64,000 nt of DNA from Gemmatimonadota bacterium (GTDB taxonomy: Bacteria > Latescibacterota > UBA2968 > GCA-2709665): assembly GCA_028873695.1 (NCBI GenBank), contig JAPPNU010000062.1:257057-321056 (forward strand). Reading direction: 5' to 3'. The position numbers were made by a program, and so were the translations under genes. Numbering within the stretch: position 1 is the stretch's first letter; every line of letters starts with the position of its first letter. This document shows, piece after piece, positions 21,480 through 52,455 of this stretch. The notes under the pieces are model-generated. The model was not told the origin of the DNA. It saw only the letters and a list, made by a program, of their open reading frames with translations, and ran no database searches.

Positions 21480-21739
21480 GACCTGTCCTCCTCTCTTCGA
21501 AATCGTCCAGACGCGATGTCTTGCGTCAGGCCATTTGACAAAACTGACATTCAACGCTCGCGTTGTCCGTATCAAGCAAGAATCCACCGATGATATGGAG
21601 TCCAGCAGAGTCGTGTCGATCCTTAATATAACGCATAGTTGCTGAATTCGTTTTGATATTCCGGAAGTTTGCGTTTGATTATCGATGAAATTCAGGCCCC
21701 GGGGCGGACTCAGCCGTTTCGTGACCAACACCTACTGGT

Positions 21740-24325
21740 TCATGGGGCCTTTCCGAAGCTTTCTGCGAAGATCAGAAAATCAATGAACCCGATCTCTCCG
21801 TTGCCGTTCAGATCGTACTGCGCGTAATATCCGTCATCGCCCTGAACCAGGCCGAACTTCGCAGCAAACTTCAGGAAATCGCCGAATCCGATCGTCCCGT
21901 CGCCATCAAAGTCTGGATTGCGGGATTTCGAGATCGCATACGGCGACACATCCCACATCTTTATCGTGTGGTCATGACTCCCACTGACAAGCGTGTTTCC
22001 GTCTGGGGAGAACGCTACAGATCCGACTGTCCCAGTATGCCCGATGAAGATTTTCAGATGGTCTCCCGTACCGACATCCCACAACCGAATTTCGCTATCA
22101 GAACTGCCGGTTGCGAGGGTGACTCCATCAGGGCTGAAAGCAACCGGGTAGACACCGGTCTTATGGCCTTGAAGTATTCTCAACGTCTGTCCTGTAACTG
22201 CATCCCACAACCGAATTGTAAGGTCCCAGGCGCCAGTACTTGCAAGGATGCGACTGCCAATGGGGTGGAAGGCTGTTTCGACCCAATCTCCAGAAATCCT
22301 TTTACTATGCTCACTTAAGGTTCTCAACGGCTGTCCCGTGCCAGCGACCCAGAGCCGGATAATTCTGTCCGTACCTCCACTTGCAAGCGTGCGACTATCC
22401 GCACTGAAAGCAAGGCTGGTAACATTGTTATCCGGATGTCCTGGCAGTGTGGCGTTGTATTGCCCTGTAACAGCATCCCACAACCGGATTTCGCCTATCA
22501 GATCTCCAGTCGCCAGCCTGCGGCCATCAGGGGAATACGCGAGCGCCGAAACGCCGGACGTATGCCCAAAAGCAGTATGAGGACGCTGTGCACTCATTCC
22601 TTCAAGCGTCTGCTTGTGCTGTCCGGTTTCCGCATCCCATAACTGAATTTCACCCCAACTGCCATTCGTCGTGAGCGTGCGACCATCGGGTGAAAAGGTG
22701 ACCGCAGAAACAGTATGTGTAAACCCGGTGATTCTGGCTTTCTGTTCTCCCGTGACCGCGTCCCACAGACGCACCGTCTTGTCGTCACTCCCCGTTGCGA
22801 GTGTACCACCGTCCGGTGAATATGCAACACGAAAGACTTTACCGGTATGTCCGGTAAAGGTTTTCATAGCCGTCACCGGGATATCCGTCGTATTCACCGT
22901 AGCACTAAAAGTCACTTGACGGGAAACGCCGGAGACGCTCACCACAACGCGGTATTCATCCGTAAATCTCCCAAGGGTGAGAAAACTTCGGGCACGCCCT
23001 TCAGAATCGGTCCACGGATTAGTAACCGATAGGTTGCCATCGCCGGCAATCACATCAAATGTCACCTGAATTCCTGAAACAGGCTCCTCATCCGCGTCTC
23101 GCACTGTAACCACAAAGGGTTCTATAAGGCGGCTGTTCACATAACCGACCTGGTTATCCCCCGAGACTTTTCGGAGCGTCGTCGGGCTAAGGTTGCCAAC
23201 GTCAATCACACCATCTACGCGCTCCAGTGCGTCATCCACATAGATGGAATAGCCCTTCCATCTGAAATTTCCATGCACGTCAATAATTCCGAGTTCCACG
23301 TCATTACTGTCTCTGGATGTCAATTCGGTGGTGATGAATTCAACTGTGTTGTCTGTTTCGCCATTCAAGGATTTGCATCCGAGCAAACTGAAACCGGGTT
23401 CTCTTGGAATCATTAACTGTGCTTGATGGAGTCCATTGTGGTCGGTTACCTCAAAGCGAAGACTGTAGGCATTCGGTCGAACTACGCGTGGCGATAGCAG
23501 ACGAATCGTTGCCGGTTCGTCATTGGGAGGGGTTTCTCTGTCATTGAAGTAAGGATGGACATTCAACCACCCGGCAGCACACTTCGACAATCGCCTGTTG
23601 TGGAAGTCTACCCCTATGGTGTAAGACATGATGTCTGCTTCAGCTTGAACGGTACGGTCGCGGAAGTCGTGTTGTAATCCAAAGGAGTGTCCGAGTTCGT
23701 GGCCCGCGATGTATCTACGTAGAATGTACGGCTCGTCTCCGTGCGTATCGAAGGGGATATAGCAGATCGTAGCCCCGCCACGATAGGCTTGGCCGCCTCC
23801 GCGCCAATTGGATCCTGGATAGGTGATGTCTGCCGCGATGAAATAGATGTTCCGAGATGTGTCAAACCGATTATCGATTTCTTTCAGGACTCTGTCGAAG
23901 GCACCCTCGCTTCCATTATAATATGATGCGGTGAACTGCCCGTTCACACGATGTACATGAATTTCTCCGCTGGCGTCGGTCTCGACAGCAAAGGCTCTTC
24001 TGCCAAACCCGTTGCGTTCCATCTCGTCGGAGTAGAACCGTCGAACGGCTCGTATTAAAGTGTCCAGCTTTGCGTCGATGTCTGGATGAACCGCACGGTC
24101 GTTTGGCAGAAAATAAATCACTCGTAGTGTGCCCGGTTCGCCCACGTTGAGATTCGCCGATTGCTTGGCCGCAGGAAGGGGACGTTCGCTGCGCCACTGT
24201 TCGTAATCGGACGGTAAACAGAATTGTACGCTGTCGGGCGGTGCAGGCGAAGCTGAACCGCCGGAATGAAGGCAGACCGATGCTAATAGGCACGTCGCCA
24301 GATGAATTACCGTTTTGTTGTTCAT
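21740..24325 (-). CDS. Secreted HExxH metalloprotease / Ig-like (Big_1-like) / 7x WD40 / C-terminal dockerin-like protein
   Basis: Signal MNNKTVIHLATCLLASVCLHSGGSA. Protease motif HELGHSFGLQHDF. Ig-like VSGDNQVGYVNSRLIEPFVVTVRDADEEPVSGIQVTFDV. Seven repeats of the form SPDG.TLA.GS.D.T[IV]RLWD. C-terminal DFDGDGTIGFGDFLKFAAKFG...YDLNGNGEIGFIDFLIFAESFG. Confidence 0.8.
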   Translation of the reverse strand: MNNKTVIHLATCLLASVCLHSGGSASPAPPDSVQFCLPSDYEQWRSERPLPAAKQSANLNVGEPGTLRVIYFLPNDRAVHPDIDAKLDTLIRAVRRFYSDEMERNGFGRRAFAVETDASGEIHVHRVNGQFTASYYNGSEGAFDRVLKEIDNRFDTSRNIYFIAADITYPGSNWRGGGQAYRGGATICYIPFDTHGDEPYILRRYIAGHELGHSFGLQHDFRDRTVQAEADIMSYTIGVDFHNRRLSKCAAGWLNVHPYFNDRETPPNDEPATIRLLSPRVVRPNAYSLRFEVTDHNGLHQAQLMIPREPGFSLLGCKSLNGETDNTVEFITTELTSRDSNDVELGIIDVHGNFRWKGYSIYVDDALERVDGVIDVGNLSPTTLRKVSGDNQVGYVNSRLIEPFVVTVRDADEEPVSGIQVTFDVIAGDGNLSVTNPWTDSEGRARSFLTLGRFTDEYRVVVSVSGVSRQVTFSATVNTTDIPVTAMKTFTGHTGKVFRVAYSPDGGTLATGSDDKTVRLWDAVTGEQKARITGFTHTVSAVTFSPDGRTLTTNGSWGEIQLWDAETGQHKQTLEGMSAQRPHTAFGHTSGVSALAYSPDGRRLATGDLIGEIRLWDAVTGQYNATLPGHPDNNVTSLAFSADSRTLASGGTDRIIRLWVAGTGQPLRTLSEHSKRISGDWVETAFHPIGSRILASTGAWDLTIRLWDAVTGQTLRILQGHKTGVYPVAFSPDGVTLATGSSDSEIRLWDVGTGDHLKIFIGHTGTVGSVAFSPDGNTLVSGSHDHTIKMWDVSPYAISKSRNPDFDGDGTIGFGDFLKFAAKFGLVQGDDGYYAQYDLNGNGEIGFIDFLIFAESFGKAP

Positions 24326-24344
24326 TCGCAACGCCGTCCTTGAA

Positions 24345-26450
24345 TCAGGGGTCAATGGTGCGGATGATATTCCCCTGCTCATCGCCTATGTGGATCGTGC
24401 CGACGGGTCCCGGGTCGGAGTTGTGAACGGCGACGGGCTTCGATCCTGCCGTGGGGGGCTGAGCAGTGCTTACAGAGGCGGGAAGCCTGTACGGATCGGC
24501 CCGACTGACGTCGACAATGTAGCCGAGATCGGCTAGGGACTGGATCGTGATTGCACTCAGCGCGTGTTCTCTCTGAATCGTCGGTTCCATTATCTCGGCG
24601 CCGATTTCGCGGTTCAGGCCCCGAAACACGTGCGCTCGCCAATGGGCGGGTGACCCACATGCCGCCCCGCCACCACGACCAAACTCCACGGAGACCTTGT
24701 TCCCAATGTAGCTCTCGCCGCCCGCGGCGTTGAAGGCCGCGATGGCCCGCTCACCGCTGAAGTATGTATCTCCCTCCAGGTCATGGAGCAGATCCAAATC
24801 CGCCCAGATAGGCCCAAAACCAAGAACGTGGGCTATCTCGTGGAGCATCAGGTCCCGCACAAGGCGCTCCTCTATCCACACCGGCTCCGACTGTTGCTTT
24901 CGGGCAAGGAAGGACTCATCAATCCAGACCTGCCCCAGGGCCGGCAGGCCGATCGGGTCGCCCGAACGCATATAGGCCGGTCCGGCTCGTCCTGCGGGTC
25001 CCCCAAGGGCAGTCTTGTGGATGAAGATCCGCAGGTCGTCCACAGTATCTTCAACGGAAGCACTGACGCTACCGTCATCGTCGACAAAGACAAAGTGATT
25101 TGTCGAAAAATCCACGTCCGGCAGACCCTCTGTAATGATGGTCTCCCAGCGTCTGGCTGCCTGCTGCATCACGTCCCGGCGCGCATCGGTGAAGTCGCCA
25201 TCGAAGACCAGTTCGATATTGAAGGGGTCCCCCCCGGAAGGGACGACTCGAACGTAGGCGCCGGCGGAGCAGTTGTTGTCGGTATTGGTTTCACCGGGGA
25301 TGCCATCGACGCACGCGCCGTAGTAGTACGTGCCGGGGCTGGAAGGCGCAGTTACACTGATTTCCTGTCGGCTTGTTCCGGAGGCGGCAAGTCGGGTTCC
25401 GGGTCCGCTGACGCGGCCGTCGAAACCCGCGAGGCTGCCGACGGTGCCGGCGCCGGCTGGCGCGTCGGCGGCGTCGATGACCGCGTCGTCCGAGCGATAG
25501 TAGCGCAGCGTGGTCGAACCGGCTGCTTCAGGGCCCTGGTTTCTTACCGTCGCATGAAGCGTGAACGATTGCCCCGCCAGGGGAACGCTCGTGCTGGCCC
25601 AGGTCAATCCGACGGCCAGGTCCGGAACCCCGACGTTCATCGGCACCGACTCCGAGCAGTTGTTGTTCGTATCGCTCTCGCCGGGGACGGGTTCGACGCA
25701 GGCGCCGTAATAGTATGTGCCCGGACTCGAGGGAGCCTTCATGGGATAAGAAACGTAAGAGCGGGGAAAATCAATATCGACGGAGTATATCGGATACCCG
25801 CCGTGTTCCGCGTCGGAGACGTCGATGGTGGCATCGTCCGAGCGGTAGAAGACCATCCGGGGATTGGCGGCCAGGTCCGTTCCTATGTTTCGCACCCACA
25901 CCTTCACCGTGAACTCACCCGGCCTCGATCTCGAATCGAGGATTGAAGGGTTTATGACAATCAAGTCCGGGCTGCCGCCCTCGACGGCCTTCACAGTCAC
26001 GGGTACGCCGACCGAGCAGTTGTTCTCCAAATTGGTCTCGCCAATCGTTGGATCGACGCACGTTCCGTAGTAGTACGTGCCTGCCACGACTGGAACCTGG
26101 AAATGAATCGTCGATATCAACCTTTTCCCGGCAGGCAAGTTGGAAGTGAAACCGGGGCTCATGTCGTCGTTGGCGTCGATGGTTGCGTCACGGGAAACGT
26201 AGTCACGCGCCGTCGTTGGGGCCGCTGGACCGGATCCTATGTTCTCAATCACTGTTTCCATAGTAGTCCCGCCCCCACGGGTCACGATCGGATGGGTGAT
26301 CCTTGGAGGATGAACGGTCAGATCCGGAGTCCCCCCATGCTGCCCTCCACGGTGACGCGTACACCGGCGGAGCAATTGCCGAAAGAATTGTGCCAGGGAA
26401 AGACGCAGACCCCATAGTAGTATGTGCCGCCATACGGCGGCGCGAGCCAA
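24345..26450 (-). CDS. 3' segment of a frameshifted dockerin-CARDB-metalloprotease gene (3 CARDB-like repeats plus a HEIAHVLGFG protease-like domain)
   Basis: Repeats end in TYYYG[AT]CV[DE]P..GE.[DN]..NNCS. The C-terminal domain is paralogous to that of 19350..21479. Homologous coding starts near 26337 (GGTPDLTVHPP). The ORF-track N-terminus MARAAVW... overlaps the upstream segment out of frame and is probably not real. Confidence 0.7.
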   Translation of the reverse strand: MARAAVWRHILLWGLRLSLAQFFRQLLRRCTRHRGGQHGGTPDLTVHPPRITHPIVTRGGGTTMETVIENIGSGPAAPTTARDYVSRDATIDANDDMSPGFTSNLPAGKRLISTIHFQVPVVAGTYYYGTCVDPTIGETNLENNCSVGVPVTVKAVEGGSPDLIVINPSILDSRSRPGEFTVKVWVRNIGTDLAANPRMVFYRSDDATIDVSDAEHGGYPIYSVDIDFPRSYVSYPMKAPSSPGTYYYGACVEPVPGESDTNNNCSESVPMNVGVPDLAVGLTWASTSVPLAGQSFTLHATVRNQGPEAAGSTTLRYYRSDDAVIDAADAPAGAGTVGSLAGFDGRVSGPGTRLAASGTSRQEISVTAPSSPGTYYYGACVDGIPGETNTDNNCSAGAYVRVVPSGGDPFNIELVFDGDFTDARRDVMQQAARRWETIITEGLPDVDFSTNHFVFVDDDGSVSASVEDTVDDLRIFIHKTALGGPAGRAGPAYMRSGDPIGLPALGQVWIDESFLARKQQSEPVWIEERLVRDLMLHEIAHVLGFGPIWADLDLLHDLEGDTYFSGERAIAAFNAAGGESYIGNKVSVEFGRGGGAACGSPAHWRAHVFRGLNREIGAEIMEPTIQREHALSAITIQSLADLGYIVDVSRADPYRLPASVSTAQPPTAGSKPVAVHNSDPGPVGTIHIGDEQGNIIRTIDP

Positions 26451-34876: not shown

Positions 34877-37417
34877 TTATGCGCCCTGGCCGTAGCTTTC
34901 GGCAAAGATCAGAAAATCGCTGAACCCGACGGCTCCGTCGTCGTCCAGGTCGAAGCGTGCGTCATAACCCGCGTCGCCGCGGCTCAGACCGTAAGCGCCC
35001 ACAAACAGCAGAAAATCCGGAAAGCTCACCGTCCCATCGCCGTCGAAGTCGGCGATGCGGGATGAAGGTTCGACGTATCGCGTCAAGTCCCATAGCAGCA
35101 TCGTGCCGTCATGTGACGCAGAGCCGAGCATCCTGCCGTCGGGAGAGTACGAAACGGAGCCAACGCCCAGCGTGTGCCCGTAGAGGGTAGCGATCTCCTC
35201 CAGAGTTTCCATATTCCACAGCACGACTGGACCTTGCGACCCGGCAGCGAGGATCCGCCCGTCAGGGGAAAACGCCCCGGAAAACAGCTGGCCGCCGTCC
35301 GATTTCTCCATGGTGGCGATTCTCTCACCTGTCGCCACGTCGTAAAGCAGGATCACGGAGTCGATCCGAGGGCCCTTCTCTGTTCCGGAGGCGATCGTCT
35401 TCCCGTCTGGGGAGAACGCGAGAAAGCCGAGGTTGCCACCGACTCCGTGAAAGCCCTGGTACACGGTAGTTGGGTTCTCCAGCGTTGCCGCATCCCACAG
35501 CTGAATGAATCCATCGGCAGATTTCGTGGCCAGCACAGAACCATCCGGTGAATACGACAGCAGCGGCGCATTTACGGAGATCGCGGACTGCGCTCCGGTC
35601 GCCACGTCCCACAGGACCAACTCGTATTTTCCCCCTGAAGCGACCGTCGCGCCATCGGGCGAAACCACGATCGTGTTGATTATGCACGCGTTTCTGAAGT
35701 ATTCCGCGATAGGTGTTCCCGTGGCCAGATCCCACACCTTGATTTCTTCGAAAGCCCCGGAGACGAGCGTCCCATCACGGAGGAACGCAAGGGACGTCAC
35801 ACCGCTCGCATGACCTTCCAGCGTAGCCACTTTTTCATGAGTCGCCACATCCCACAGCGTAATTTTCCTGTCGTCCGACCCTGAGGCGAAGATCCCGCCG
35901 TTGGGAGAAAATGCTACGGAGGTGGTGGCACTCTCTTTTTCAATCCTGTCGACAATCCCTCTTGCCTGCACGTCCCACAGGTCGATTCTACCATCGGAGG
36001 ACGCCGATACGAGGGTGTTGCCATCGGAGGAAAAGGAAACGGATCGGACGCCGCCCGTATGCCCGTAAAGTGTGGCGACGCTCTCACGGGCGCCCGCGTC
36101 CCAGAGTCGGATCGTGCCATCGGACGATCCCGACGCAACGGTATTTCCATCGGTCGAATAGGAAACGGATCGTACGTCGTCCGTATGCCCGTAGAGTGTG
36201 GCCAGATTCGTATGTGTCGCCGCGTCCCACAGGCGGACCGTCCTGTCGAAGGATCCCGAAGCAATTGTGCGCCCGTCGGGTGAAAAGGAAATGGAGCGGA
36301 TTATGAACTTGTGCCCTGTCAGAACACCGACTTTCTCATGCGTCACCACGTCCCACAGGTTGATTGAATGCTGGTTTTTGTCTGCCGCAGCGAGGAGCCT
36401 TCCATCCGGGGAAAACGCCAGGGGATTGTAATCGAGGGTGGTAGTGTTGGGCTTCCCCTCATAGGTTGTAACCCTTTGCCACGTACCCGTATCCCAGATC
36501 ACAAGCGAATTACCCGAGGAAACGCAGGCAAGCAGTCCGCCGTCGGGTGAAAACGCCACGCCCTGGGGCCAGCGTCCCCAGCCTCCCCTGTCTCCCAAAA
36601 AGTTAAGCTCGGCGACTGGCGTGTTCGTCGTCGTATCCCATACCCTGAGGTTGGATTCGGAGTAAACCTGCTCGGACCATGCGATCATGGCGCCGTCCGG
36701 GGAAAACGCCATGGATACGATCGTGTGTTCGGCCGGTATCAGCCCGTGAGGCTGCAACATCGCCAGGTCGTACATCCATATGCCGATATTTCGTGCTACA
36801 GCAAGCCGATGGCCGTCCGGCGAAAAAGAAACCGCTCTGTCGCCGCGACTGAGGCGGCCCTTCCCCAGCCGCACGATTGCGTCATCGGGCAGGTGCCACG
36901 TCCGAAAATCGCCTTTCAAGGCTGGAAGCGAAATACCGGTCCCCACCCCCATGGCTTGAAACGCTACTGACTCCAGCCCGTTGACGGATACTGAGACCGC
37001 ATTTGTCCCGGGACGCGGACCAAGCGTCAGCCTTTTCCCGGCATGCCCATTGATGTCGGTCACTGCTTGCTCGAGCATGAATCTGCCGCTGAGTCTCCCC
37101 CCGCCCATGGTAACCGCAAAGGCAACCGGCACGTCGGGGAGGGGATTGTCGTTCCGGTCTCTCACCTCGACAGTGAAGCGTCTTTCCAGTGGCGCGCCGG
37201 GCGTACCCTGCTGGTTGGCGCCGTCGATTATTTCCAACCTGCCAGGCGCCGCCCTGACGACGTCGTCCGGAATTTCCGAAATCACGAAGCGTGTCCTTTC
37301 TCCGTTCCCGTCGCGGTCGACTGCCTCGATACCGAGAGGATGTGAGGAAGGTTCGGAGAGGCTTGAAAAATCACCCCAGTCACTGGGAATGACGCCGTCA
37401 TAATCGAACGTGACCAC
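34877..37417 (-). CDS. Ig-like (Big_1-like) / multi-WD40 beta-propeller / C-terminal dockerin-like protein; 3' part of a gene split by an in-frame TAA
   Basis: Ig-like IIDGANQQGTPGAPLERRFTVEVRDRNDNPLPDVPVAFAV. About 14 WD40-like repeats (FSPDG..[IL]ASGS.D.T[IV]RLWD). C-terminal DFDGDGTVSFPDFLLFVGAYG...FDLDDDGAVGFSDFLIFAESYG. No signal peptide of its own. Same frame as 37427..38356. Confidence 0.75.
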   Translation of the reverse strand: MVTFDYDGVIPSDWGDFSSLSEPSSHPLGIEAVDRDGNGERTRFVISEIPDDVVRAAPGRLEIIDGANQQGTPGAPLERRFTVEVRDRNDNPLPDVPVAFAVTMGGGRLSGRFMLEQAVTDINGHAGKRLTLGPRPGTNAVSVSVNGLESVAFQAMGVGTGISLPALKGDFRTWHLPDDAIVRLGKGRLSRGDRAVSFSPDGHRLAVARNIGIWMYDLAMLQPHGLIPAEHTIVSMAFSPDGAMIAWSEQVYSESNLRVWDTTTNTPVAELNFLGDRGGWGRWPQGVAFSPDGGLLACVSSGNSLVIWDTGTWQRVTTYEGKPNTTTLDYNPLAFSPDGRLLAAADKNQHSINLWDVVTHEKVGVLTGHKFIIRSISFSPDGRTIASGSFDRTVRLWDAATHTNLATLYGHTDDVRSVSYSTDGNTVASGSSDGTIRLWDAGARESVATLYGHTGGVRSVSFSSDGNTLVSASSDGRIDLWDVQARGIVDRIEKESATTSVAFSPNGGIFASGSDDRKITLWDVATHEKVATLEGHASGVTSLAFLRDGTLVSGAFEEIKVWDLATGTPIAEYFRNACIINTIVVSPDGATVASGGKYELVLWDVATGAQSAISVNAPLLSYSPDGSVLATKSADGFIQLWDAATLENPTTVYQGFHGVGGNLGFLAFSPDGKTIASGTEKGPRIDSVILLYDVATGERIATMEKSDGGQLFSGAFSPDGRILAAGSQGPVVLWNMETLEEIATLYGHTLGVGSVSYSPDGRMLGSASHDGTMLLWDLTRYVEPSSRIADFDGDGTVSFPDFLLFVGAYGLSRGDAGYDARFDLDDDGAVGFSDFLIFAESYGQGA

Positions 37418-39367: not shown

Positions 39368-41116
39368 CTACCGTAGAGCGTCAGCCAGATCACTCTTCCC
39401 GAGTCGCTCCGCGAGCTGCAGCGGCGTCTCGTTCGCCGCAGAACGCAGGTTCGGATCGGCGCCTGCGGCAATCAGCGTGTTGATGGTCTCGACCGTTCCT
39501 AACATTACAGCCATGTGCAGAGGTGTAATCTGGTTCTTGTCCTGCGCGTTCGGGTCGGCGCCAGCCGCGAGCAGCGAGACCACCACCTCGACATGACCAA
39601 TCCCCAACCTCATCAGGAGCATTGCGTTATGCAACGGAGTGAGCTGGTGTTCGTCGCGAGCATTGGGATCGGCCCCTGCTTCAAGCAGGCTCGCAACTTT
39701 CTTCAGGTCTCCGCCTAACGCGGCCGAGTGCAGGGCACCCGTTCGAGGAGCGTCGGGATCGATATCTTGCAGGAGTTTCTTCGTTTCCGCATGGCCGCGG
39801 ATATTTGCCATGATCTCGGCCGTTCTCCCAAGTTTGTCACGCGCCCTCGTATCTGCGCCGGCTTCGACCAGAGCGGCGACAGCATCAACGTGACCGGACC
39901 AAGCAGCCTCGTGCAGCGGCGTGGTGCCGTCGCTGGTGGTCGCATTGGGATCGACGCCGAACTCGAGCAACGCCGAAATGACCCCAATGTGCCCTTCTGC
40001 GCTGGCCGCACGCAGAGCCGCTTGTCCGTTGTCCGGAAGGTTTACATCCGCGCCAGCGTCAACAAGGACTCGGATGGCTGCAACATGACCATTGCGGGCG
40101 GCGCTGTAAATCGGTGTTACCTGGCCAGGTAGGCCGTTCGGATCGGCGCCCGCCTCAATCAACGCCGAAATGGCCGCGATTTGCCCTTCTCCGCTGGCCA
40201 CATGCAGGGGGGTCTTCTTGTCACGGTCCTGAGCATTCACGTCCGCACCCGCGTCAACGAGAACGTCGATGGTGGGAACTTGACCGGTGGAAGCTGCATA
40301 GTGCAACGGCGAGGACTGTGGCATTGGTGCAAGCGGTGAATCGGCCGGCACATTCGGATTCGCACCGTCTTGAAGAAGATCTGTCAACTGCTTGACGTCT
40401 CCTCGTGCGGCCGCCTGATGGGTTTCCGGTGCAAATCTCATCATGAACGGAATGGTATCTCGAGCGGCAGCCTCAGATCTCGCCCGCAGCTCTTCGTCTA
40501 CCGCATCGAACGCTTTCGTGATTCTGCGACGAAGTTCATTCTCGTCGAAGCGTTCTGTCATTGGAGCCCACAGGCCGGTTGTATCGCGAACACCCATAAG
40601 TTTGAAGTCATGGCTCACCTCAGTGAAGGCGTGCCTCTCAGCATCCGCACGCAAATTGGAGGAATTATCGGGACTCTTTTGCGCGTAGTACCTATACCTG
40701 GAGACAGCATAGGTTGTCTTTATCCAGTCGTCATAAGAGAGTCCGTCTTCCCAGTACTTATCGAACGCAGGCTCCAGCAAGGCAACGATCTCCGCATCCT
40801 CTCTATCCTTAGCGGTCTTAAGCGCGCGCAGCCCGTTCAGGCTACCGGGTGCGTACGCGCCCGATTCAACCAGTTTCAGCACCTCCGCCACGTCACCCCG
40901 TTCGACCGCGGCCAGTAGCTGAACGCCGGACGACTGTTCCGGAGGTTGCGGTCCTCCACTCCCGATCGCCGCCGTCTCGCCGGCGGCGGCATCGACGGAG
41001 TCCGTGTGAGACATTGTGCGGTCTTCGTCAGAACCGGCGCCGATCGAGGCGCGGAACGCCATAGGCAGCAGCGCTATGGCGGCAATGCAAATCATGGCTT
41101 TCCGGAAAGCCAACAT
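39368..41116 (-). CDS. Secreted ankyrin-repeat protein
   Basis: Signal MLAFRKAMICIAAIALLPMAFRASIGA. At least 8 ANK repeats (SPLHYAASTGQVPTIDVLVDAGADVNAQD, KTPLHVASGEGQIAAISALIEAGADPN, etc.). Confidence 0.85.
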   Translation of the reverse strand: MLAFRKAMICIAAIALLPMAFRASIGAGSDEDRTMSHTDSVDAAAGETAAIGSGGPQPPEQSSGVQLLAAVERGDVAEVLKLVESGAYAPGSLNGLRALKTAKDREDAEIVALLEPAFDKYWEDGLSYDDWIKTTYAVSRYRYYAQKSPDNSSNLRADAERHAFTEVSHDFKLMGVRDTTGLWAPMTERFDENELRRRITKAFDAVDEELRARSEAAARDTIPFMMRFAPETHQAAARGDVKQLTDLLQDGANPNVPADSPLAPMPQSSPLHYAASTGQVPTIDVLVDAGADVNAQDRDKKTPLHVASGEGQIAAISALIEAGADPNGLPGQVTPIYSAARNGHVAAIRVLVDAGADVNLPDNGQAALRAASAEGHIGVISALLEFGVDPNATTSDGTTPLHEAAWSGHVDAVAALVEAGADTRARDKLGRTAEIMANIRGHAETKKLLQDIDPDAPRTGALHSAALGGDLKKVASLLEAGADPNARDEHQLTPLHNAMLLMRLGIGHVEVVVSLLAAGADPNAQDKNQITPLHMAVMLGTVETINTLIAAGADPNLRSAANETPLQLAERLGKSDLADALR

Positions 41117-42246: not shown

Positions 42247-44685
42247 TCAATCCGCTACGTGAATCGTCCAACTGTTGCTGCCGCTGTTTTTCGTGGCATG
42301 AAAGTTCCACCGCACACCGTTTATGGTGGACCCTCTGGCGTCTATACCGGTACCGGCGCTGAAGAACGCGATGGAACCCCTTCCGGAACTGGATACAGAG
42401 AAGGTATTGCCCTTGTAGGTACAGGTTCCGCCAGGATTCACGACCAGCCCGGCCCTGCAGGCGCCGCCACTTCCTCCGCCACTCCCGCTGACGGTGACCT
42501 CCACGGCGTCAGAGCAGTTGTTGCCGGTATCGCTCTCGTCGCTGACGTCGTCAACGCATGCGCCGTAGTAGTAGGTCCCGGCGTCCGACGGCGCGTTCAG
42601 GCTGATCGATTCGGCGCTTGTGCCCCCCGGAGACAGGCCGCTCACGGCGTCCGTGCCCACTTCCGTGTCATTTGTCGAGATTGTCGAGTTGGACGAGCGA
42701 TAGTACCGCAACGTCGTGGATCCTGCAGCCCCATTGCCCTGATTGCGCACCGTGGCGCTAAGCGTAAACGACTGTCCGGTCGTCAGCGTGTTGTCGTCCA
42801 CCGAGGGTGACTCGACGATCAGGTCGGGGTTATCCGACCCTCCGCCACCCGTGCCGCTGACGGTAAGGGTATTCTCACTGGCGTACTTGCCCCTGACCCC
42901 ATTAATGGTGATTTCGGCAACCAGTCGGTATTCTCCTGCGACCGTGGGTGAATAGGAACACAAACCGTTACGCTCCGTGCCCGGAACGTCGACCCAGGCG
43001 GATCCTTGTTTCCGCTGCCATTTAGACGTGTGAGCCATATACGATACGCCGTTGACGGTCGAGTTGTTCAGGATGATGCAGTTGCCTGCCGAGAAGAACA
43101 GGTATTGCACGCGTCCAGACGAAACGCGAAGACCGTCCAGCGGTTTGTAATCTCCGGAGGGCGGCGTTGTCCCGCCCCCACCTCCGCCACCGCCGGTTCC
43201 ACTTGGCGCCGTAGTGCCCTCGGCGATGGGCGACCAGGGATCTGCAGAGCCGGTTTCGCAGGAAGACGAGTTTCTATACCGGTAGCGCATTTCGTAGGTC
43301 GTATTCGACTTCAGCGCCCCGTAGAACCACGTGGTAGCATAGCCAATAAAGACATTGTTGCCCCGGTTCGTGAACGTCGTACAAAACGCTTCCCATTCTC
43401 CCTGCGGCGCCTTGGTCCGTAGTTCGAGATCATAGGCTCTCGTTTCTCCGGCACGCCACGTATCGAGAAATCTGAAGTAGAGCGTATCGGGTGTCGCTCG
43501 CGTAAAAACCGGAGTGGAGAGATCATTCGCCCGCCAGGCTTCTGCGTCCCCCGAGGTCCCATCGTCGCACGTGTAACCTATCGTGCCCGTGGCCTCTGTC
43601 GTAAACGTCATTTCAAGTGTGCACTTGCCCCCAAACAGCTCCGAATCGTCGTAGATCTGCGTGAGATTGCCCGTCATCGGACCCGTGTTCGTGTAGGTAT
43701 AGCGTCCCTCGCGCCTGCCGAAGCCTTCAGCAAACCGGCCGGCAGACACGATGTCCAGAAAGTAGGACTCCGCCAGAATCCGCTTGCCAACGGCCAGGCG
43801 GTCGAAGGCATTCTGGTCTGCGGGAGCAGAGCCGGCAGGCGTCCCGCCGCCGCCGGAGGGCGGGACCTCACTGCCGAATGCGCCGGCGAAAACCAGAAAA
43901 TCCGAGAAGGCGACGGATCCATCGCCATCCAGATCGAAGCGGGCTTCATACCGCGCATCGCCCCGGCTTGCCCCGAAACCGCCCGCGAACGCCAGGAAAT
44001 CCGGAAACCCGACGGTCCCGTCACCGTCGAAGTCCGGCGACCCGGAGCCCGCGGCGTTGAACGTGATGACGCTGCCGGTCGTGAGTTCATCGGACGACGT
44101 GGAACTCTCTGCAATCGAGACCTTCTCGACGCCGATGGTAAACTCCCTGCCCGTGACGTCTGCAGCCGTCTCAAACTCCGCGCGCACCAGGAACCCCGAT
44201 GACGCCAGCGTGACGGGCGAGGTCGAGGCGAGGTTGACCCCGACCGACCCCTCCGGTATCGAAAGGTCGAAGGCGCTTTTTTCAGATTTGACGTAGGTCA
44301 CTAGAGAGGCGTCAAAGTCGAACCTGATGATCGCGCCGCGCAGGGAGGTCGTGACCCCCGTGGCGAATACCTCGATGGCAATTATCGTGCCGCGTCCTTG
44401 CACGGCGCCCGTTGTCACGCCGTCGTCCCTCTGGTTGCCTGCGCCGCCGTCGGCGATCAGGTCCAGCGACAGAACTGCGTTTGCGTTGTTGCCCAGGGCG
44501 ATTTTCGCGCCGTGTTCCGACAGCGTGCCCTTGACGGAGTCACCGTCCCCGCCGGCAACCAACTCACCGCCGGCAATCACGTCGAGAGACGAAAACCCGT
44601 CTTCGCTGTACGCGACGAGAACTGCACCTGTTAACACGAAGAGGCCGACAACCACAATCACGGACAGGCGAAATACAGAATTCAT
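42247..44685 (-). CDS. Secreted cohesin-like / dockerin-like / unknown central region / CARDB / conserved C-terminal module protein
   Basis: GGGAGG then ATG at 44685. N-terminal hydrophobic segment. Cohesin-like and dockerin-like modules about 85-90% nt-identical (by eye) to those of 31416..34169. The last ~590 nt are about 95% identical. The central ~330 aa (YRYRNSSSCETGSADPW..., Gly-rich linkers) is unrelated to LRR. Confidence 0.8.
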   Translation of the reverse strand: MNSVFRLSVIVVVGLFVLTGAVLVAYSEDGFSSLDVIAGGELVAGGDGDSVKGTLSEHGAKIALGNNANAVLSLDLIADGGAGNQRDDGVTTGAVQGRGTIIAIEVFATGVTTSLRGAIIRFDFDASLVTYVKSEKSAFDLSIPEGSVGVNLASTSPVTLASSGFLVRAEFETAADVTGREFTIGVEKVSIAESSTSSDELTTGSVITFNAAGSGSPDFDGDGTVGFPDFLAFAGGFGASRGDARYEARFDLDGDGSVAFSDFLVFAGAFGSEVPPSGGGGTPAGSAPADQNAFDRLAVGKRILAESYFLDIVSAGRFAEGFGRREGRYTYTNTGPMTGNLTQIYDDSELFGGKCTLEMTFTTEATGTIGYTCDDGTSGDAEAWRANDLSTPVFTRATPDTLYFRFLDTWRAGETRAYDLELRTKAPQGEWEAFCTTFTNRGNNVFIGYATTWFYGALKSNTTYEMRYRYRNSSSCETGSADPWSPIAEGTTAPSGTGGGGGGGGTTPPSGDYKPLDGLRVSSGRVQYLFFSAGNCIILNNSTVNGVSYMAHTSKWQRKQGSAWVDVPGTERNGLCSYSPTVAGEYRLVAEITINGVRGKYASENTLTVSGTGGGGSDNPDLIVESPSVDDNTLTTGQSFTLSATVRNQGNGAAGSTTLRYYRSSNSTISTNDTEVGTDAVSGLSPGGTSAESISLNAPSDAGTYYYGACVDDVSDESDTGNNCSDAVEVTVSGSGGGSGGACRAGLVVNPGGTCTYKGNTFSVSSSGRGSIAFFSAGTGIDARGSTINGVRWNFHATKNSGSNSWTIHVAD

Positions 44686-46832: not shown

Positions 46833-47633
46833 CTATTCGGAGCCGGGCTCCTCGGTTGCCGTTTCGTTCAGCGCCCGGATGCGGGCGACGATCGCTTCAA
46901 CAGTCGCGGTCACCGCCGAAAGCAGCGCATCGCGGTCTTCGATGACCACCTGCGGGTCTGAATAGCGGTATCGGACGGCATACCCGGTCAGCCACACCAG
47001 CTTTTCGCCGGCCGGTGTGTGGTTTTCACCGGGATGCCGCCGCACGATGGCGGCAAGCTTCGCCAGATCATGCGTGTTACGATAGTCGGCGTCGAGCGCG
47101 GAAATCCACCCTTTCAGCGCGTTTTCCATTGCCTGCTGAGCGTGAAACCCAATGGCCTCCTGAGAAGATCGGGAGTCTTCCACAAGGACTTCCAGATCGT
47201 TGAGACACCGCCTGGCATTGGCAATGCGCTGCCGTATGTCGGGCCAGTTGGACGGCTCCGGGTTATCGTAGTCTACTTTGTCGCCATTTCCGTCAAAACC
47301 GTCGCGGACGGCCTGGCCTGCCACGTGGTTGCGCGCCCGGCGACCGTCGTGGAAGGCTTTTTCGTTCAGGTGGACCAGATCGACGCCGATCAGGTCGCCA
47401 TACAGGTCCTCGACCTTGCGGTGGGCCGCCGCGCTCGTGTCCTGATATTTCTGCTCGTTCGTGGAATCGGCGTCGGTGATGATGAGCAGGTCGATATCCG
47501 ATTTTGCGTGGTAGTCGCCCCTGGCTCGAGAGCCGAACAGGATGACCCTGTCAGGGCGGGCTTCTTCGCCAACGGCCTTGGCGACGGCGCAGGCCTTCGG
47601 GTCGGGGGCGTCGCATGTCGGGAGCGTTGTCAT
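46833..47633 (-). CDS. Fused nucleotidyltransferase (MNT-like) - HEPN domain protein, copy 2
   Basis: MTTLPTCDAPDPKACAVAKAV...ILFGSRARGDYHAKSDIDLLIITD...AIGFHAQQAMENALKGWISAL. Start moved to ATG 47633 because the ORF-track extension overlaps the phoX-like gene. Confidence 0.75.
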   Translation of the reverse strand: MTTLPTCDAPDPKACAVAKAVGEEARPDRVILFGSRARGDYHAKSDIDLLIITDADSTNEQKYQDTSAAAHRKVEDLYGDLIGVDLVHLNEKAFHDGRRARNHVAGQAVRDGFDGNGDKVDYDNPEPSNWPDIRQRIANARRCLNDLEVLVEDSRSSQEAIGFHAQQAMENALKGWISALDADYRNTHDLAKLAAIVRRHPGENHTPAGEKLVWLTGYAVRYRYSDPQVVIEDRDALLSAVTATVEAIVARIRALNETATEEPGSE

Positions 47634-47718
47634 CAATGTTCGTAGGCTTTCTGATTTATACGGCCATTTTTCGTTCTTCCGGTTGCCGCGGCGCCGGGAA
47701 TTCGACCGGGTCCCCGGC

Positions 47719-49086
47719 TCAGCCCGTCCAGGGCCCGGTGATGGCCAGGGTGATCCCGGGCGACTGGATATTGGCGTACAGGGTGCGGCCGTCGGGCGAG
47801 AACGTGGCGCCCGCGAACTCTGAGTCGTTGAAGGCGTTGCGGCCGAGCTTGTAGATCCGCCCCTCCGGGGTGACCCCCACAAGGTGGTTGTCCCCTCCGC
47901 CGTCCTCGCAGAGCACGAGGTCGCCCCAGGGCGCCACCGTCAGATTGTCGCAGTTCTCCACCAGATTGCCGTCGTTGGGCTCGATGAACAGTTCCAGGGT
48001 TCCGGGCGAGGCGGTCTCTTCGGGCGTTCCCTCTCCGGGGCCCGGTTCGTAGCGCCACACCTGACCCTTCTTCTTCTTGCCGCCGCTGGTGCATGCGAAG
48101 TAGATGGCTTCCCGCCCGTACCACATGCCCTCGCCGCGGGCGAAGCGGGCGGCGCCCTTGTCGAAGCCCTGGTCGCGCAGGTCATTGTCCGGGGACTCCA
48201 CGTCCTCCACGTCGACCCAGGCCGCGGCCAGGCGGTCGCCGGGAGCGACGGTCTGCGACTGGTGGTTGGTCGTGTCCAGGCTCGGCCGGTCGAGGGCCAT
48301 GAGCGCCTGCAGCCGGCCCCCGGCCGCGAGACGTCCGGGCTCGTCGGGCAGGTAGCGGTAGATGAGACCGTCGCCGGCATCCTCGGTCTGATAGACGATG
48401 CCCGTTGCCGGATGGACGGCCACGGCCTCGTGATTGAAGCGGCCCATCGCCTTCAGGGCCACCGGCTTCACCGGCCCCGTGGCCGGGCCCACCGGAACCT
48501 CGAAGTTGTACCCGTGGTCCTGTTCGTGGTCCTCATCGGCGCGCTGGGTCGTCTCCTCGCAGGTGATCCAGCTCCCCCACGGGGTGAGGCCCCCGGCGCA
48601 GTTGCGTACGGTGCCGGCGAGGCTGAGATAATGTTTCTCCAGTTCGCCGGCGGGGCCGAGCACGAAGGTCGTCGTCCCTCCCTGCGGCGGATCGCCGCGA
48701 CCCCAGTCGTAGAACCGGTCGCGCGGCAGCCTGTCGAGACGCTCGTTCTCATCGCCGAAGGCGCCGATCTTTCGGGCCCCCGCGGTGAGCTCGTGGTTGC
48801 AGATCAGCAAAGTCCGTCCCTCGGCTCCGGGAAAGGCGGCCATGGCGTCGGGCAGCCCCGGCACCCGGAGGCCATCGTCCATCTCCTCGCCGGTGCGGGA
48901 GATCACCCGGTAGGTGAATCCCGCAGGCAGGTCGATGATCCCGCCCGGGTCCGGTAGCATGGGTCCGTAGCCGGCAGCGATCTCCTTCGCGGTGGCTTCC
49001 CCCCAGACCACGAGGTGCTGCAGCCCCTGGAATCCCACGGTGACGGCGGTCGCCGACTTCAGAAACTGCCTTCTGGTGACGGGCAT
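47719..49086 (-). CDS. phoX: PhoX-family (DUF839) phosphatase with a Tat signal
   Basis: Twin-arginine MPVTRRQFLKSATAVTVGFQG. Motif GTVRNCAGGLTPWGSWITCEE, typical of PhoX/DUF839. Confidence 0.75.
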   Translation of the reverse strand: MPVTRRQFLKSATAVTVGFQGLQHLVVWGEATAKEIAAGYGPMLPDPGGIIDLPAGFTYRVISRTGEEMDDGLRVPGLPDAMAAFPGAEGRTLLICNHELTAGARKIGAFGDENERLDRLPRDRFYDWGRGDPPQGGTTTFVLGPAGELEKHYLSLAGTVRNCAGGLTPWGSWITCEETTQRADEDHEQDHGYNFEVPVGPATGPVKPVALKAMGRFNHEAVAVHPATGIVYQTEDAGDGLIYRYLPDEPGRLAAGGRLQALMALDRPSLDTTNHQSQTVAPGDRLAAAWVDVEDVESPDNDLRDQGFDKGAARFARGEGMWYGREAIYFACTSGGKKKKGQVWRYEPGPGEGTPEETASPGTLELFIEPNDGNLVENCDNLTVAPWGDLVLCEDGGGDNHLVGVTPEGRIYKLGRNAFNDSEFAGATFSPDGRTLYANIQSPGITLAITGPWTG

Positions 49087-50214: not shown

Positions 50215-50283
50215 CCGGTTCTGCTCCGGTTGAAATGACGAGATCCGTTGAACCGGCTTTCGGCGCCGATTATGGATTCCAAC

Positions 50284-50320
50284 ACAAAAAAGGTCGAGGC
50301 GCCCTTCAGCATCCCCGACC
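50284..50320 (-). terminator. Candidate terminator of the selenoprotein gene
   Basis: Minus strand: GGTCGGGG ...loop... CCTCGACC followed by TTTTTTGTGTT (one mismatch in the stem). Confidence 0.4.
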
Positions 50321-50339
50321 CTCGCATTCTGACGATGCG

Positions 50340-50576
50340 TCAGATGCGTTTCGCTATTTCGGGCTGGATCTCTTCGTACTCGGGAAAGCGGCCCTCTTTC
50401 AGCTTGGAGAAGGCGAGTTCGCCGTCGATCGTAACTTCAAAACGCCCGCCGCCGGAGGGTATGAGGGTGAAGCCTTCGATATCCTGCTTGAACTCTCTCA
50501 GAAGCCTGTCCGTCAAACTGACGGTCTGATCCTCGTAGCCTCAAGCCGCGCAGTATTCGATGTCGATTCTGGGCAT
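50340..50576 (-). CDS. SelW/SelT/Rdx-family selenoprotein (CxxU), in-frame TGA at 50541-50543
   Basis: My translation: AAAGGAGG(cgccgg)ATG PRIDIEYCAA-U-GYEDQTVSLTDRLLREFKQDIEGFTLIPSGGGRFEVTIDGELAFSKLKEGRFPEYEEIQPEIAKRI*. This matches the Rdx pattern IEYC-x-x-[CU]...L.P...G.FEV..DG.L.[FW]SK...GRFPE. A hairpin CCGUCA-guu-UGACGG lies 16 nt after the UGA. Missed by the ORF track. Confidence 0.7.
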
Positions 50577-50611
50577 CCGGCGCCTCCTTTACGTGTGTGG
50601 TTGAAACAGGA

Positions 50612-50702
50612 GAAAGTCGAGGAGAGAGCGGAGAGTAGTGAGAAAAGAGAAAAGGCGAAAGTCGAGGAGAGAGTGGAGAGAAGTGAGAAAAGAGAGAAAA
50701 CG
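50612..50702. repeat. Purine-rich 45-bp tandem repeat (2 units), followed by pyrimidine-rich inverted partial copies up to ~50790
   Basis: GAAAGTCGAGGAGAGAGCGGAGAGTAGTGAGAAAAGAGAAAAGGC / GAAAGTCGAGGAGAGAGTGGAGAGAAGTGAGAAAAGAGAGAAAACG. Then CTCTCACTCCTCTTTC and CTTTTTCTCGCTCCTCACTCCTCTTTCCTCACTCCTC. Confidence 0.7.
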
Positions 50703-50864
50703 AATCAAAGGCCTCTCACTCCTCTTTCATTTCGCGTTTCCCGATTTGCTTTTTCTCGCTCCTCACTCCTCTTTCCTCACTCCTCGCATTCTGATAATAT
50801 ATCTCGTCCGGCCAGGATTGTCAACGTCATGCCTTTGGGTCGCGGCTGTATATCGGGAATCCGC

Positions 50865-50893
50865 TTGACCGTCGACCCGGCGGGGGTTAGATT
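50865..50893 (+). promoter_or_regulatory. Candidate sigma70-type promoter (TTGACC-N17-TAGATT) for the M32 carboxypeptidase operon
   Basis: Hexamers at 50865-50870 and 50888-50893. ATG at 50944. Confidence 0.3.
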
Positions 50894-50943
50894 GCGGCGG
50901 CATACGGAACGGTTATCGGCACGCCACGATAGGAATAAGAACG

Positions 50944-52455
50944 ATGTCCACACAGCGGGCTTACGAAGACCTCATCGGCCGGTGGAAGGAGCTTCAGTTG
51001 CTGGAATCCTGCGGGGCCGTGCTGGGGTGGGACGAACGTACCTATATGCCCCGCGGCGGCGCCGCGCACCGCGCCGAACAGCATGCTCTGCTCGCCGGCC
51101 TTGCGCACGAGCGGGCCACGGCGACCGAGGTTGGTGAATTGCTGTCGCGCATCGAAGAAGGCGATCGGCATTTCACGCCGGATTCGGCGCCCGCCGTAAA
51201 CGTCAGGGAAATCCGGCGTGAGTACGACCGGAGGACGAAGTTGCCGCGGTCTCTGGTGGAGGCGCATGCGAAGGCGACGACGCTGGCGGAGCAGGCCTGG
51301 CAGGAGGCTCGTGAGAAATCTGCGTTCGGGCTGTTCCGGCCGCACTTCGAGGAGGTGTTGCGGCTCACCCGGGAAGTAGCGGAGGCGCTGAAGACCGGAG
51401 GTTCGGCATACGACGCGCTCCTGGACCGGTTTGAACCCGGAGAGACCTCACGGAATCTCAAGAGGGTATTCGGGGCGCTCCGTGACGAACTGGCCCCGCT
51501 GGTCGCGGCGATCGTGGATACCGGCAGGGAGCCGGACGCATCGATCCTGACGCGGGACTATCCCGTGGCCAAACAGACGGCGTTCGGCGTCGCCGCGGCA
51601 GCGGCCATCGGGTTCGACTTCGAGCGCGGGCGGCTGGACGAGACCGTGCATCCGTTCTGTACCGGGATCGGCCCTGGAGACACGAGAATAACCACGCGGT
51701 ACGACCGCAACCGGTTCGCGCAGGCGTTCTTCGGGACGCTGCACGAGGCGGGTCACGGCCTGTATGACCAGGGGCTGGACTCAGCGCATTCCGGAACGCC
51801 GATGGCAGACGCCGTATCTCTGGGAATTCACGAGTCCCAGTCCCGGATGTGGGAGAATTTCGTGGGGCGCGGCCGGGCGTTCTGGACGCATTTCTTCCCG
51901 AAAGCGCGGGATGAGTTTCCGGCGGCGCTGGCGGATGTTTCGCCGGATGCGTTCCATTTCGCGATCAACCACGTGAGGCCGTCGTTCATCCGGGTGGAAG
52001 CGGACGAAGCCACGTACAATTTGCACATTCTGCTGCGGTTCGCGTTGGAGGAGGCGCTGGTGGAGGGCGATCTGGCGGTAGCGGACGTTCCCGGCGCGTG
52101 GAACGAGCGGTTCGAGAAGGATTTCAGCCTGAAGCCGCCGGACGATGCGCACGGGTGTCTTCAGGACGTGCACTGGAGCGCCGGGTTGATCGGATATTTC
52201 CCGACCTATACGCTGGGAAACCTGTATGCCGCCCAGTTTTTCGAATCTGCCCGCGGCGACCTGGGCGATCTCGACGGACAATTCGCCAAAGGAGAATTCG
52301 GTCCGCTGCTGGGTTGGCTGAGGGACAGGATCCATCTGCAGGGAAAGCGCTATCCGGCACCGGAACTCGTGGAGGCGGTTACAGGGAAGCCCCTGGGCCA
52401 CAGGGCATTGATGACGCACCTGAAGGCCAGATTCGGACCGCTGTATGGGGTTTGA
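50944..52455 (+). CDS. M32 family carboxypeptidase (Taq-like)
   Basis: HEAGHGLYDQG (HExxH), DETVHPFCTG (HPF), IHESQSRMWEN, GYFPTYTLGN. Confidence 0.9.
   Translation: MSTQRAYEDLIGRWKELQLLESCGAVLGWDERTYMPRGGAAHRAEQHALLAGLAHERATATEVGELLSRIEEGDRHFTPDSAPAVNVREIRREYDRRTKLPRSLVEAHAKATTLAEQAWQEAREKSAFGLFRPHFEEVLRLTREVAEALKTGGSAYDALLDRFEPGETSRNLKRVFGALRDELAPLVAAIVDTGREPDASILTRDYPVAKQTAFGVAAAAAIGFDFERGRLDETVHPFCTGIGPGDTRITTRYDRNRFAQAFFGTLHEAGHGLYDQGLDSAHSGTPMADAVSLGIHESQSRMWENFVGRGRAFWTHFFPKARDEFPAALADVSPDAFHFAINHVRPSFIRVEADEATYNLHILLRFALEEALVEGDLAVADVPGAWNERFEKDFSLKPPDDAHGCLQDVHWSAGLIGYFPTYTLGNLYAAQFFESARGDLGDLDGQFAKGEFGPLLGWLRDRIHLQGKRYPAPELVEAVTGKPLGHRALMTHLKARFGPLYGV

Follow-up and report, generated by a model that had tools for sequence, protein, structure and literature searches.

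In the DNA analysed here (64 kb in full length, referred to as the window), a short minus-strand gene very probably encodes a genuine SelW-like selenoprotein of the Rdx family, with selenocysteine (Sec) inserted at an in-frame UGA. The predicted product is a thiol/selenol oxidoreductase of 78 residues carrying the motif Cys9-Ala-Ala-Sec12, its redox role being proposed on the basis of family membership. This interpretation is built on an open frame interrupted by a single TGA, a family match that extends across this codon, the conservation of both the TGA and the upstream peptide among orthologues, and a constraint acting at the RNA level on a hairpin located directly downstream.

Results

Reading frame and family membership

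Direct reading of the minus strand gave a single frame of 78 codons (50576 to 50340), which is open except for one TGA. Its translation, MPRIDIEYCAA*GYEDQTVSLTDRLLREFKQDIEGFTLIPSGGGRFEVTIDGELAFSKLKEGRFPEYEEIQPEIAKRI*, contains this TGA as internal stop and ends with …AKRI (Table 1). In the codon-usage scan of the whole window, the Rdx gene was the only case of an in-frame TGA that lies in the context of a redox motif and is flanked on either side by coding signal. Coordinates and sequence agree with the initial annotation, which had described a one-frame minus-strand gene behind the Shine-Dalgarno sequence AAAGGAGG and had assigned the UGA to the second redox position of a CxxU motif, where it aligns with the Cys of the Cys forms. 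Its statement that the gene is invisible to the track of open reading frames was correct for the full length, but not for the last 58 codons, which the mechanical list shows from TTG 50516 onwards and which are called as 'Rdx family protein'.

Table 1. Features of the Rdx locus and of the repeat-protein genes in the window.
Feature	Position	Strand	Basis and remarks
Probable promoter, TTGACA-17 nt-TATATT	50796..50824	(-)	11/12 consensus matches; putative use as promoter
Two 45-nt CT-rich tandem units in the 5' leader	50603..50695	(-)	TRF: period 45, 2.0 copies, 91% matches
Shine-Dalgarno sequence AAAGGAGG	50583..50590	(-)	Direct reading; 6-nt spacer to ATG
SelW-like/Rdx selenoprotein CDS (predicted)	50340..50576	(-)	78 residues including Sec12, plus stop TGA 50340-50342
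Start codon ATG	50576-50574	(-)	Direct reading
TGC codon of the first Cys in the CxxU redox motif	50550..50552	(-)	Invariant Cys in orthologues
In-frame UGA, probable Sec codon, second position of the C-A-A-U motif	50541..50543	(-)	Orthologues and alignment
Bacterial SECIS core, CCGUCA-GUU-UGACGG, 6-bp stem, GUU apical loop	50510..50524	(-)	Folding and comparative
Final stop TGA	50342-50340	(-)	Direct reading
Probable intrinsic terminator, G+C-rich hairpin followed by UUUUUU	50286..50322	(-)	Folding
LRR genes	19350-21731, 31416-34199	(-)	
WD40 genes	21740-24382, 34877-37417	(-)	
Ankyrin genes	27340-29970 (fused to FGE-sulfatase domains), 39368-41116	(-)	
CARDB genes	24345-26450, 42247-44685	(-)	

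For profile searches, Cys was put in place of the UGA. The resulting protein matched the Pfam family Rdx (PF10262) with 75.5 bits (cut-off 22.6) over residues 3-75 of 78 and the NCBIfam model TIGR02174 (CXXU_selWTH) with 68.5 bits against a cut-off of 34.2, and the Rdx match to the read-through translation, which the initial annotation had named as a check, hence spans the TGA. The 58-residue fragment alone reached 49.5 bits on PF10262; accordingly, about 26 bits of genuine Rdx signal derive from the stretch around and before the TGA. The top NCBIfam model was NF041051 (SelTWH_Campy; 77.6 bits, residues 4-73), but as this score lies below the cut-off of 88, the gene does not belong to that equivalog and is placed in the broader subfamily only. 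The CxxC/CxxU motif typical of the N-terminal region is present as C9-A-A-U12 and aligns with the CxxC of the solved structures 2fa8 and 2p0g as well as with the CTQC of Halomonas. A thioredoxin-like Rdx fold is further suggested by sequence homology to Rdx proteins of solved structure.

Conservation of the UGA codon among orthologues

An orthologue scan with one genome per species resulted in 35 loci. Most of them belong to Candidatus Latescibacterota MAGs, several being complete chromosomes, and the complete chromosomes carrying the gene include OZ220733.1, OZ244744.1, and OZ242358.1. The gene is also present on the Latescibacterota chromosomes OZ250150.1, OZ242180.1, and OZ241917.1. The remaining loci were found in Dehalococcoidia, Anaerolineae, Chloroflexia, Herpetosiphonaceae, Acidimicrobiia, and bins labelled as Gemmatimonadota. 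In-frame translation revealed a TGA at exactly the CxxU codon in 34 of the 35 loci, which carry at least four taxonomic labels and share protein identities of 41-96%. The sole Cys form is that of Halomonas cupida, which reads C-T-Q-C with the codon TGT. In the alignment, this Cys and those of the Cys forms from the PDB fall at the TGA, as expected from the initial annotation.

The peptide preceding the TGA is kept as [I/L]-E-[Y/F]-C-x-x, and its codons vary synonymously (ATC/ATT, TAC/TAT, GCG/GCA, GCT/GCC), as expected for translated sequence. Moreover, the first Cys of the motif is invariant in all 28 distinct orthologues (TGC in 27, TGT in one), and in 17 relatives an AGGAGG core or a one-base variant of it is located at the same distance before the ATG or GTG. 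The scenario that had been formulated as an argument against the gene, i.e., orthologues ending at this position, was consequently not observed: TGA and upstream peptide are conserved together.

Two of the MAG contigs with the gene, JAPPFJ010000016.1 (L002) and JAPPJY010000082.1 (L011), carry a Gemmatimonadota label. Both share gene order with the window, with 74-93% protein identity for all eight neighbouring genes tested, and the Latescibacterota chromosomes match the window likewise. The Gemmatimonadota label of these two bins is probably wrong.

A SECIS-type hairpin under constraint at the RNA level

The SECIS core is encoded by codons +6 to +11 after the UGA (T-V-S-L-T-D); the hairpin begins 16 nt and its loop 22 nt past the TGA. 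The consensus model of bacterial SECIS elements (bSECIS) describes a loop of 3-9 nt, a stem of 4-16 bp, and a G at loop position 1 or 2 (PMC13188914), together with a distance of 16-37 nt between UGA and loop and a minimum free energy (MFE) of -7.5 kcal/mol or lower (PMC13188914). The hairpin of the window agrees with this model, featuring a 3-nt loop, 6 bp, G-U at loop positions 1-2, and a distance of 22 nt. Folded alone it reaches -7.6 kcal/mol, and the 60 nt from the UGA, whose free MFE structure includes the hairpin, reach -14.0 kcal/mol. The element CCGUCA-GUU-UGACGG, which the initial annotation had placed 16 nt after the UGA, is thus present, and the folding of the 60 nt recommended there recovers a SECIS-type hairpin at a fitting distance.

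For the window sequence alone, the fold is unexceptional (z = -0.41 for 49 nt, z = -1.71 for 67 nt); the support for the hairpin comes from comparison. Across 29 distinct sequences aligned without gaps, RNAalifold predicted exactly the 6-bp helix (columns 20-25/29-34) and no other. Of the cells of this helix, 98.9% are paired; with the 3' partner shifted by 1-3 columns, the value drops to 19-47%. A compensatory series is seen at pair 23/31 (U-A in 20, U-G in five, and C-G in four sequences), and at pair 25/29, A-U occurs in 24 sequences and G-U in four. As three of the six pairs are invariant and just one double change occurs, the support from covariation is modest.

A stronger argument for the hairpin than covariation is the freeze of its synonymous sites. 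Within the hairpin, Val+7 is always encoded by GTC (28/28), Ser+8 by AGT (26/26), and Thr+10 by ACG (24/24), and Leu+9 by TTG or CTG only. These four 4- or 6-fold degenerate codons therefore use one or two synonyms each across 24-28 sequences, in comparison to three or four synonyms at every one of the 11 codons outside the hairpin that are likewise 4- or 6-fold degenerate and comparably conserved (G+1, L+13, L+14, T+25, L+26, P+28, S+29, G+31, G+32, R+33, and V+36). By chance, the hairpin sites would be exactly the four least variable among the fifteen in 1 of 1365 cases. The sequence CCGUCA-GUN-UGACGG is almost invariant among Sec forms of this Rdx subgroup, be they from Latescibacterota, Chloroflexota, Acidimicrobiia, or genomes labelled as Gemmatimonadota. 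The Cys form of Halomonas (L032) has no hairpin at the corresponding place.

Two loci from Dehalococcoidia/Chloroflexota (L029 and L031) were found to be without the common CCGUCA-GUN-UGACGG hairpin. About 17-40 nt past the TGA, they carry GGCC-A-CC-UGGAC-GG-C-GGCC instead, with a G in loop position 2; the SECIS was apparently replaced at these loci, with the UGA retained. A long lower stem including the UGA itself (GCUUGAG/UUCAAGC), predicted for the window only, was rejected, as it is broken in relatives with GCC before the TGA.

Transcription unit and variable leader repeat

The block with GTTGACAATC…GATATATTA that contains the probable promoter (TTGACA-17 nt-TATATT) was found in the intergenic regions of all seven relatives inspected (L001, L002, L003, L006, L011, L012, and L013) and is kept there despite differing leader lengths. 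Downstream of the gene, the 70 nt from the stop codon fold with -28.1 kcal/mol, and the stem ends directly before the U6 tract. The consensus terminator scan missed this hairpin, as its upper part is apparently outside the stem and loop limits of the scan. With a probable promoter that is conserved among relatives and a probable terminator of its own, the gene looks monocistronic.

The leader (50603-50790) folds as a long hairpin (-75.6 kcal/mol, z = -2.86), in which the CT-rich units pair with a degenerate GA-rich arm at about 50700-50786. The 45-nt repeats would be transcribed only if transcription starts from the conserved promoter. Among the relatives, these GA-/CT-rich units appear as a variable insertion between the conserved promoter and the Shine-Dalgarno sequence of the Rdx gene: L001 (9568-9852) contains seven tandem units with exact core in the orientation opposite to that of the window, L006 (9912-9947) contains two, L011 and L012 one each, and L002, L003, and others none. 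The length of the Rdx intergenic region ranges from 209 to 603 nt among relatives, and the 45-nt repeat has no other occurrence in the window. The repeat could modulate the structure of the leader or could simply represent an unstable minisatellite. In the lineage of the window, its variable copy number could also act as a length-variable switch on selenoprotein expression.

UGA as stop codon and search for the Sec machinery

Stop codons of the 30 family-supported genes in the window are TGA (15), TAA (8), and TAG (7). TGA is thus the commonest ordinary stop and terminates the Rdx gene as well, which indicates that decoding of the UGA at codon 12 is context-dependent.

The search for genes of Sec incorporation covered the 64 kb of the window, less than 2% of a genome of some 5 Mb, and roughly 700 kb of flanks of the orthologous loci, with about 20 kb for each relative; this coverage is too small for negative results to be informative. 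Rfam and ARAGORN detected no tRNA gene, no tRNA-Sec, and no RNA family match in the window, and in the flanks of the 35 loci ARAGORN detected no tRNA-Sec and two tRNA-Leu genes only. No selA, selB, or selD was found among the approximately 50 open reading frames of the window in the Pfam/NCBIfam survey. When SelA, SelB, and SelD of E. coli were compared by tblastn with the window and the 35 loci, the sole match was that of the LepA GTPase of the window to SelB; the SelA query proved accurate, with 99-100% identity to E. coli proteins. Among the 120 matches listed for the SelA query in the protein collection, all were from Enterobacteriaceae. From the purifying selection on UGA and SECIS in 34 genomes, we infer that the Sec machinery is present in these organisms.

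The codon-usage scan for in-frame TGA codons revealed no second selenoprotein gene in the window or the flanks, the other candidates being antisense artefacts or adjacent genes in the same frame. On the minus strand, the gene of a MutY-like glycosylase (61280-62368) and that of a DUF1232 protein (62387-62848) share one frame and are split by a single TGA (62387-62389); as they represent distinct families and lack a redox motif, they are not a selenoprotein candidate. Antisense to the Rdx gene, a plus-strand open reading frame of 300 aa (50235-51137) has no family match, spans the intergenic region, and was regarded as spurious.

Genomic surroundings

In the Latescibacterota loci L001-L018, the Rdx gene is divergent from a gene for an M32 carboxypeptidase (50944-52455 in the window). 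Beyond it, upstream of the Rdx gene, follow a nucleoside hydrolase, a nucleotidyltransferase, a MetE-like protein, and RsgA, and downstream of the Rdx gene are located a hypothetical protein of 351 aa and PhoX. No neighbour points to a specific redox partner.

Between 19350 and 44685, the window contains a run of large minus-strand genes for 'eukaryote-like' repeat proteins (Table 1). Such a repertoire is typical of host-associated symbionts, and the bins of the close relatives L002 and L011 are named RHO1 and RHO2. Two minus-strand genes of the nucleotidyltransferase type may represent toxin-antitoxin or defence modules. One of them (17435-18259) encodes NTP_transf_2 and HEPN domains; the other (46833-47882) gave weak matches below cut-off to the NCBIfam models of MntA and HalB; for the copy of this second gene on the source scaffold, the domains NTP_transf_2, Polbeta, and HEPN are on record.

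Discussion

According to the proposed mechanism, translation would start at the ATG behind a strong Shine-Dalgarno sequence. At the UGA (50543-50541), SelB·GTP·Sec-tRNA(Sec) would be bound by the hairpin that follows after 16 nt and whose loop opens with G-U, and Sec would be delivered in competition with RF2, so that translation would proceed to the TGA at 50342-50340 rather than terminate. The product would be a small protein of thioredoxin fold, whose Cys9/Sec12 pair may cycle between the selenolate/thiol and the selenenylsulfide state. SelB-dependent insertion, fold, and redox chemistry are expected here by analogy to established knowledge of the family.

Several other readings of the TGA have to be weighed against Sec insertion. 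It appears highly improbable that the gene callers are right and that a C-terminal Rdx product of 58 residues is made from TTG 50516, the TGA merely ending a meaningless upstream open reading frame of 11 codons. This is how all close homologues appear in the protein collection, including the one designated 'Rdx family protein' at NCBI, but such uniform calls are a known artefact of stop-codon-based gene calling (PMC13326102). Moreover, the fragment would be devoid of the CxxC/U motif, the catalytic centre of the family, and the 11 upstream codons, which add 26 bits to the family match, show protein-level conservation across phyla alongside synonymous changes. The TTG (50516-50514) lies inside the hairpin and is not preceded by a Shine-Dalgarno sequence, whereas the ATG has the conserved AGGAGG. 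An even slighter probability, close to nil, is left for a pseudogene, i.e., a Cys-form Rdx inactivated by nonsense mutation. A single base change would be sufficient to convert TGC or TGT to TGA, but the same TGA occurs in 34 genomes at 41-96% identity with the frame intact and the rest of the protein evolving conservatively, and conserved Shine-Dalgarno sequence, promoter, and hairpin are not expected of a decaying gene. Taken together, the orthologue data on TGA, upstream peptide, and Shine-Dalgarno sequence rule out the pseudogene as well as a start after the TGA.

As improbable as the 58-residue product is a read-through in which a near-cognate or dedicated tRNA places Trp, Cys, or Gly at the UGA, which would lead to a CxxW or CxxC protein. 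Such decoding would be in line with the lack of Sec machinery in the 64-kb window and the flanks and with the distant homologue P0032, recorded with a W at the UGA position. Among the homologues, this protein (80 aa, encoded on a 573-nt ENA contig) is the sole one called in full length; it reads IEYCGSWGY, with Trp in place of Sec. However, its W is most simply explained by a translation table with TGA as Trp, and P0032 most likely represents another hidden Sec form. A general reassignment is contradicted by TGA being the commonest stop in the window and the terminator codon of the gene itself. In addition, the alignment pairs the UGA with the redox Cys found in Cys forms, a classic Sec/Cys pair, and the conserved hairpin matches SelB-dependent SECIS elements in its G-U loop signature and in its spacing. 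Sec insertion at the UGA hence remains by far the best explanation.

The near-invariance of the 15-nt element CCGUCA-GUN-UGACGG invites further speculation. The gene might be spread between phyla as a cassette of UGA plus minimal SECIS, or the element might be a near-universal minimal ligand of SelB; separately, the 45-nt repeat might serve as an expression switch. Jointly, we consider these ideas unlikely.

The in-frame UGA causes gene callers to cut the gene to a fragment of 58 residues. Close relatives in the protein collection are calls of 58-59 residues beginning just past the position of the TGA, one of them named 'Rdx family protein [Candidatus Latescibacteria bacterium]' (NCBI), and the fragment of the window itself (P0001, on a 219-kb ENA metagenome scaffold) was likewise called with 58 residues. 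Public annotation thereby drops the catalytic CxxU centre, and these genomes are under-counted as selenium users. The SelW-like family and the truncated annotation of its members have long been known (PMC1088965, PMC13326102), and selenoprotein biology is unchanged by our analysis. The gene is a SelW-like member from a phylum without prior mention of selenoproteins in the searchable literature, which contained nothing relevant on Latescibacterota in connection with selenoproteins, selenocysteine, or selenium use. A corrected annotation would add Candidatus Latescibacterota, and with it a host lineage apparently rich in eukaryote-like repeat proteins, to the inferred users of selenocysteine. 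The chief value is practical and lies in this correction. Apart from that, the locus provides a very clean example of a SECIS dictating codon choice and amino-acid sequence (…A/T-V-S-L-T/A…) of its host protein.

Comparison with known systems

Among solved structures, bacterial Rdx proteins were matched with E-values of 7.8e-12 to 2.7e-6, namely 2fa8 (Atu0228), 2p0g (SelW-related), 2obk, 2oka, 3dex, and 2ojl; the alignments cover residues 2-74, with 2fa8 as the best by sequence (E = 7.8e-12). Their CxxC aligns with the CxxU, and the motifs G-G-x-F-E-[VI] and G-x-F-P are common to both. The solved proteins differ in carrying Cys at the Sec position, followed by C-N-W-[LM]-L-R-[AS]-[AG]-W-[ML], compared with U-G-Y-E-D-Q-T-V-S-L in the window gene; the V-S-L-T stretch of the Sec forms is the translation of the SECIS hairpin.

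Mouse SelW (2npb, E = 3.4e-4) and human MIEN1/C17orf37 (2ljk, E = 1.2e-8) are homologous as well and have their CxxU/CxxC at the same position. Eukaryotic SelW relies on a SECIS in the 3'-UTR together with SBP2/eEFSec, and not on a SelB-bound hairpin inside the coding sequence. The two SECIS types are contrasted in the literature (PMC13188914), and the SECIS of E. coli fdhF fits the same consensus bSECIS model as the hairpin described here (PMC13188914). Like the latter, the fdhF element is located immediately 3' of the UGA, with G-U opening a small apical loop; there is, however, no sequence similarity, and the element of the window is a minimal one with a 6-bp stem and a triloop. The fdhF SECIS represents the paradigm of a SelB-binding element.

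The closest counterparts are the bacterial SelW-like selenoproteins, with which the gene shares scores above cut-off for PF10262 and TIGR02174 (the latter being named after the CXXU motif), the N-terminal CxxU, and a length of about 75-100 residues. Likewise shared are the SECIS hairpin within the coding sequence just past the UGA and the coexistence of Sec and Cys forms. In the Sargasso Sea metagenome, SelW-like proteins represent the most abundant selenoprotein family, with 48 Sec and seven Cys forms (PMC1088965), and truncated annotation of bacterial selenoprotein genes has been characterised as systematic (PMC13326102). Compared with the SelW-like proteins of the Sargasso Sea and GOS data, nothing essential differs; what sets the present gene apart is its host lineage and the near-invariant 15-nt hairpin of this subgroup.
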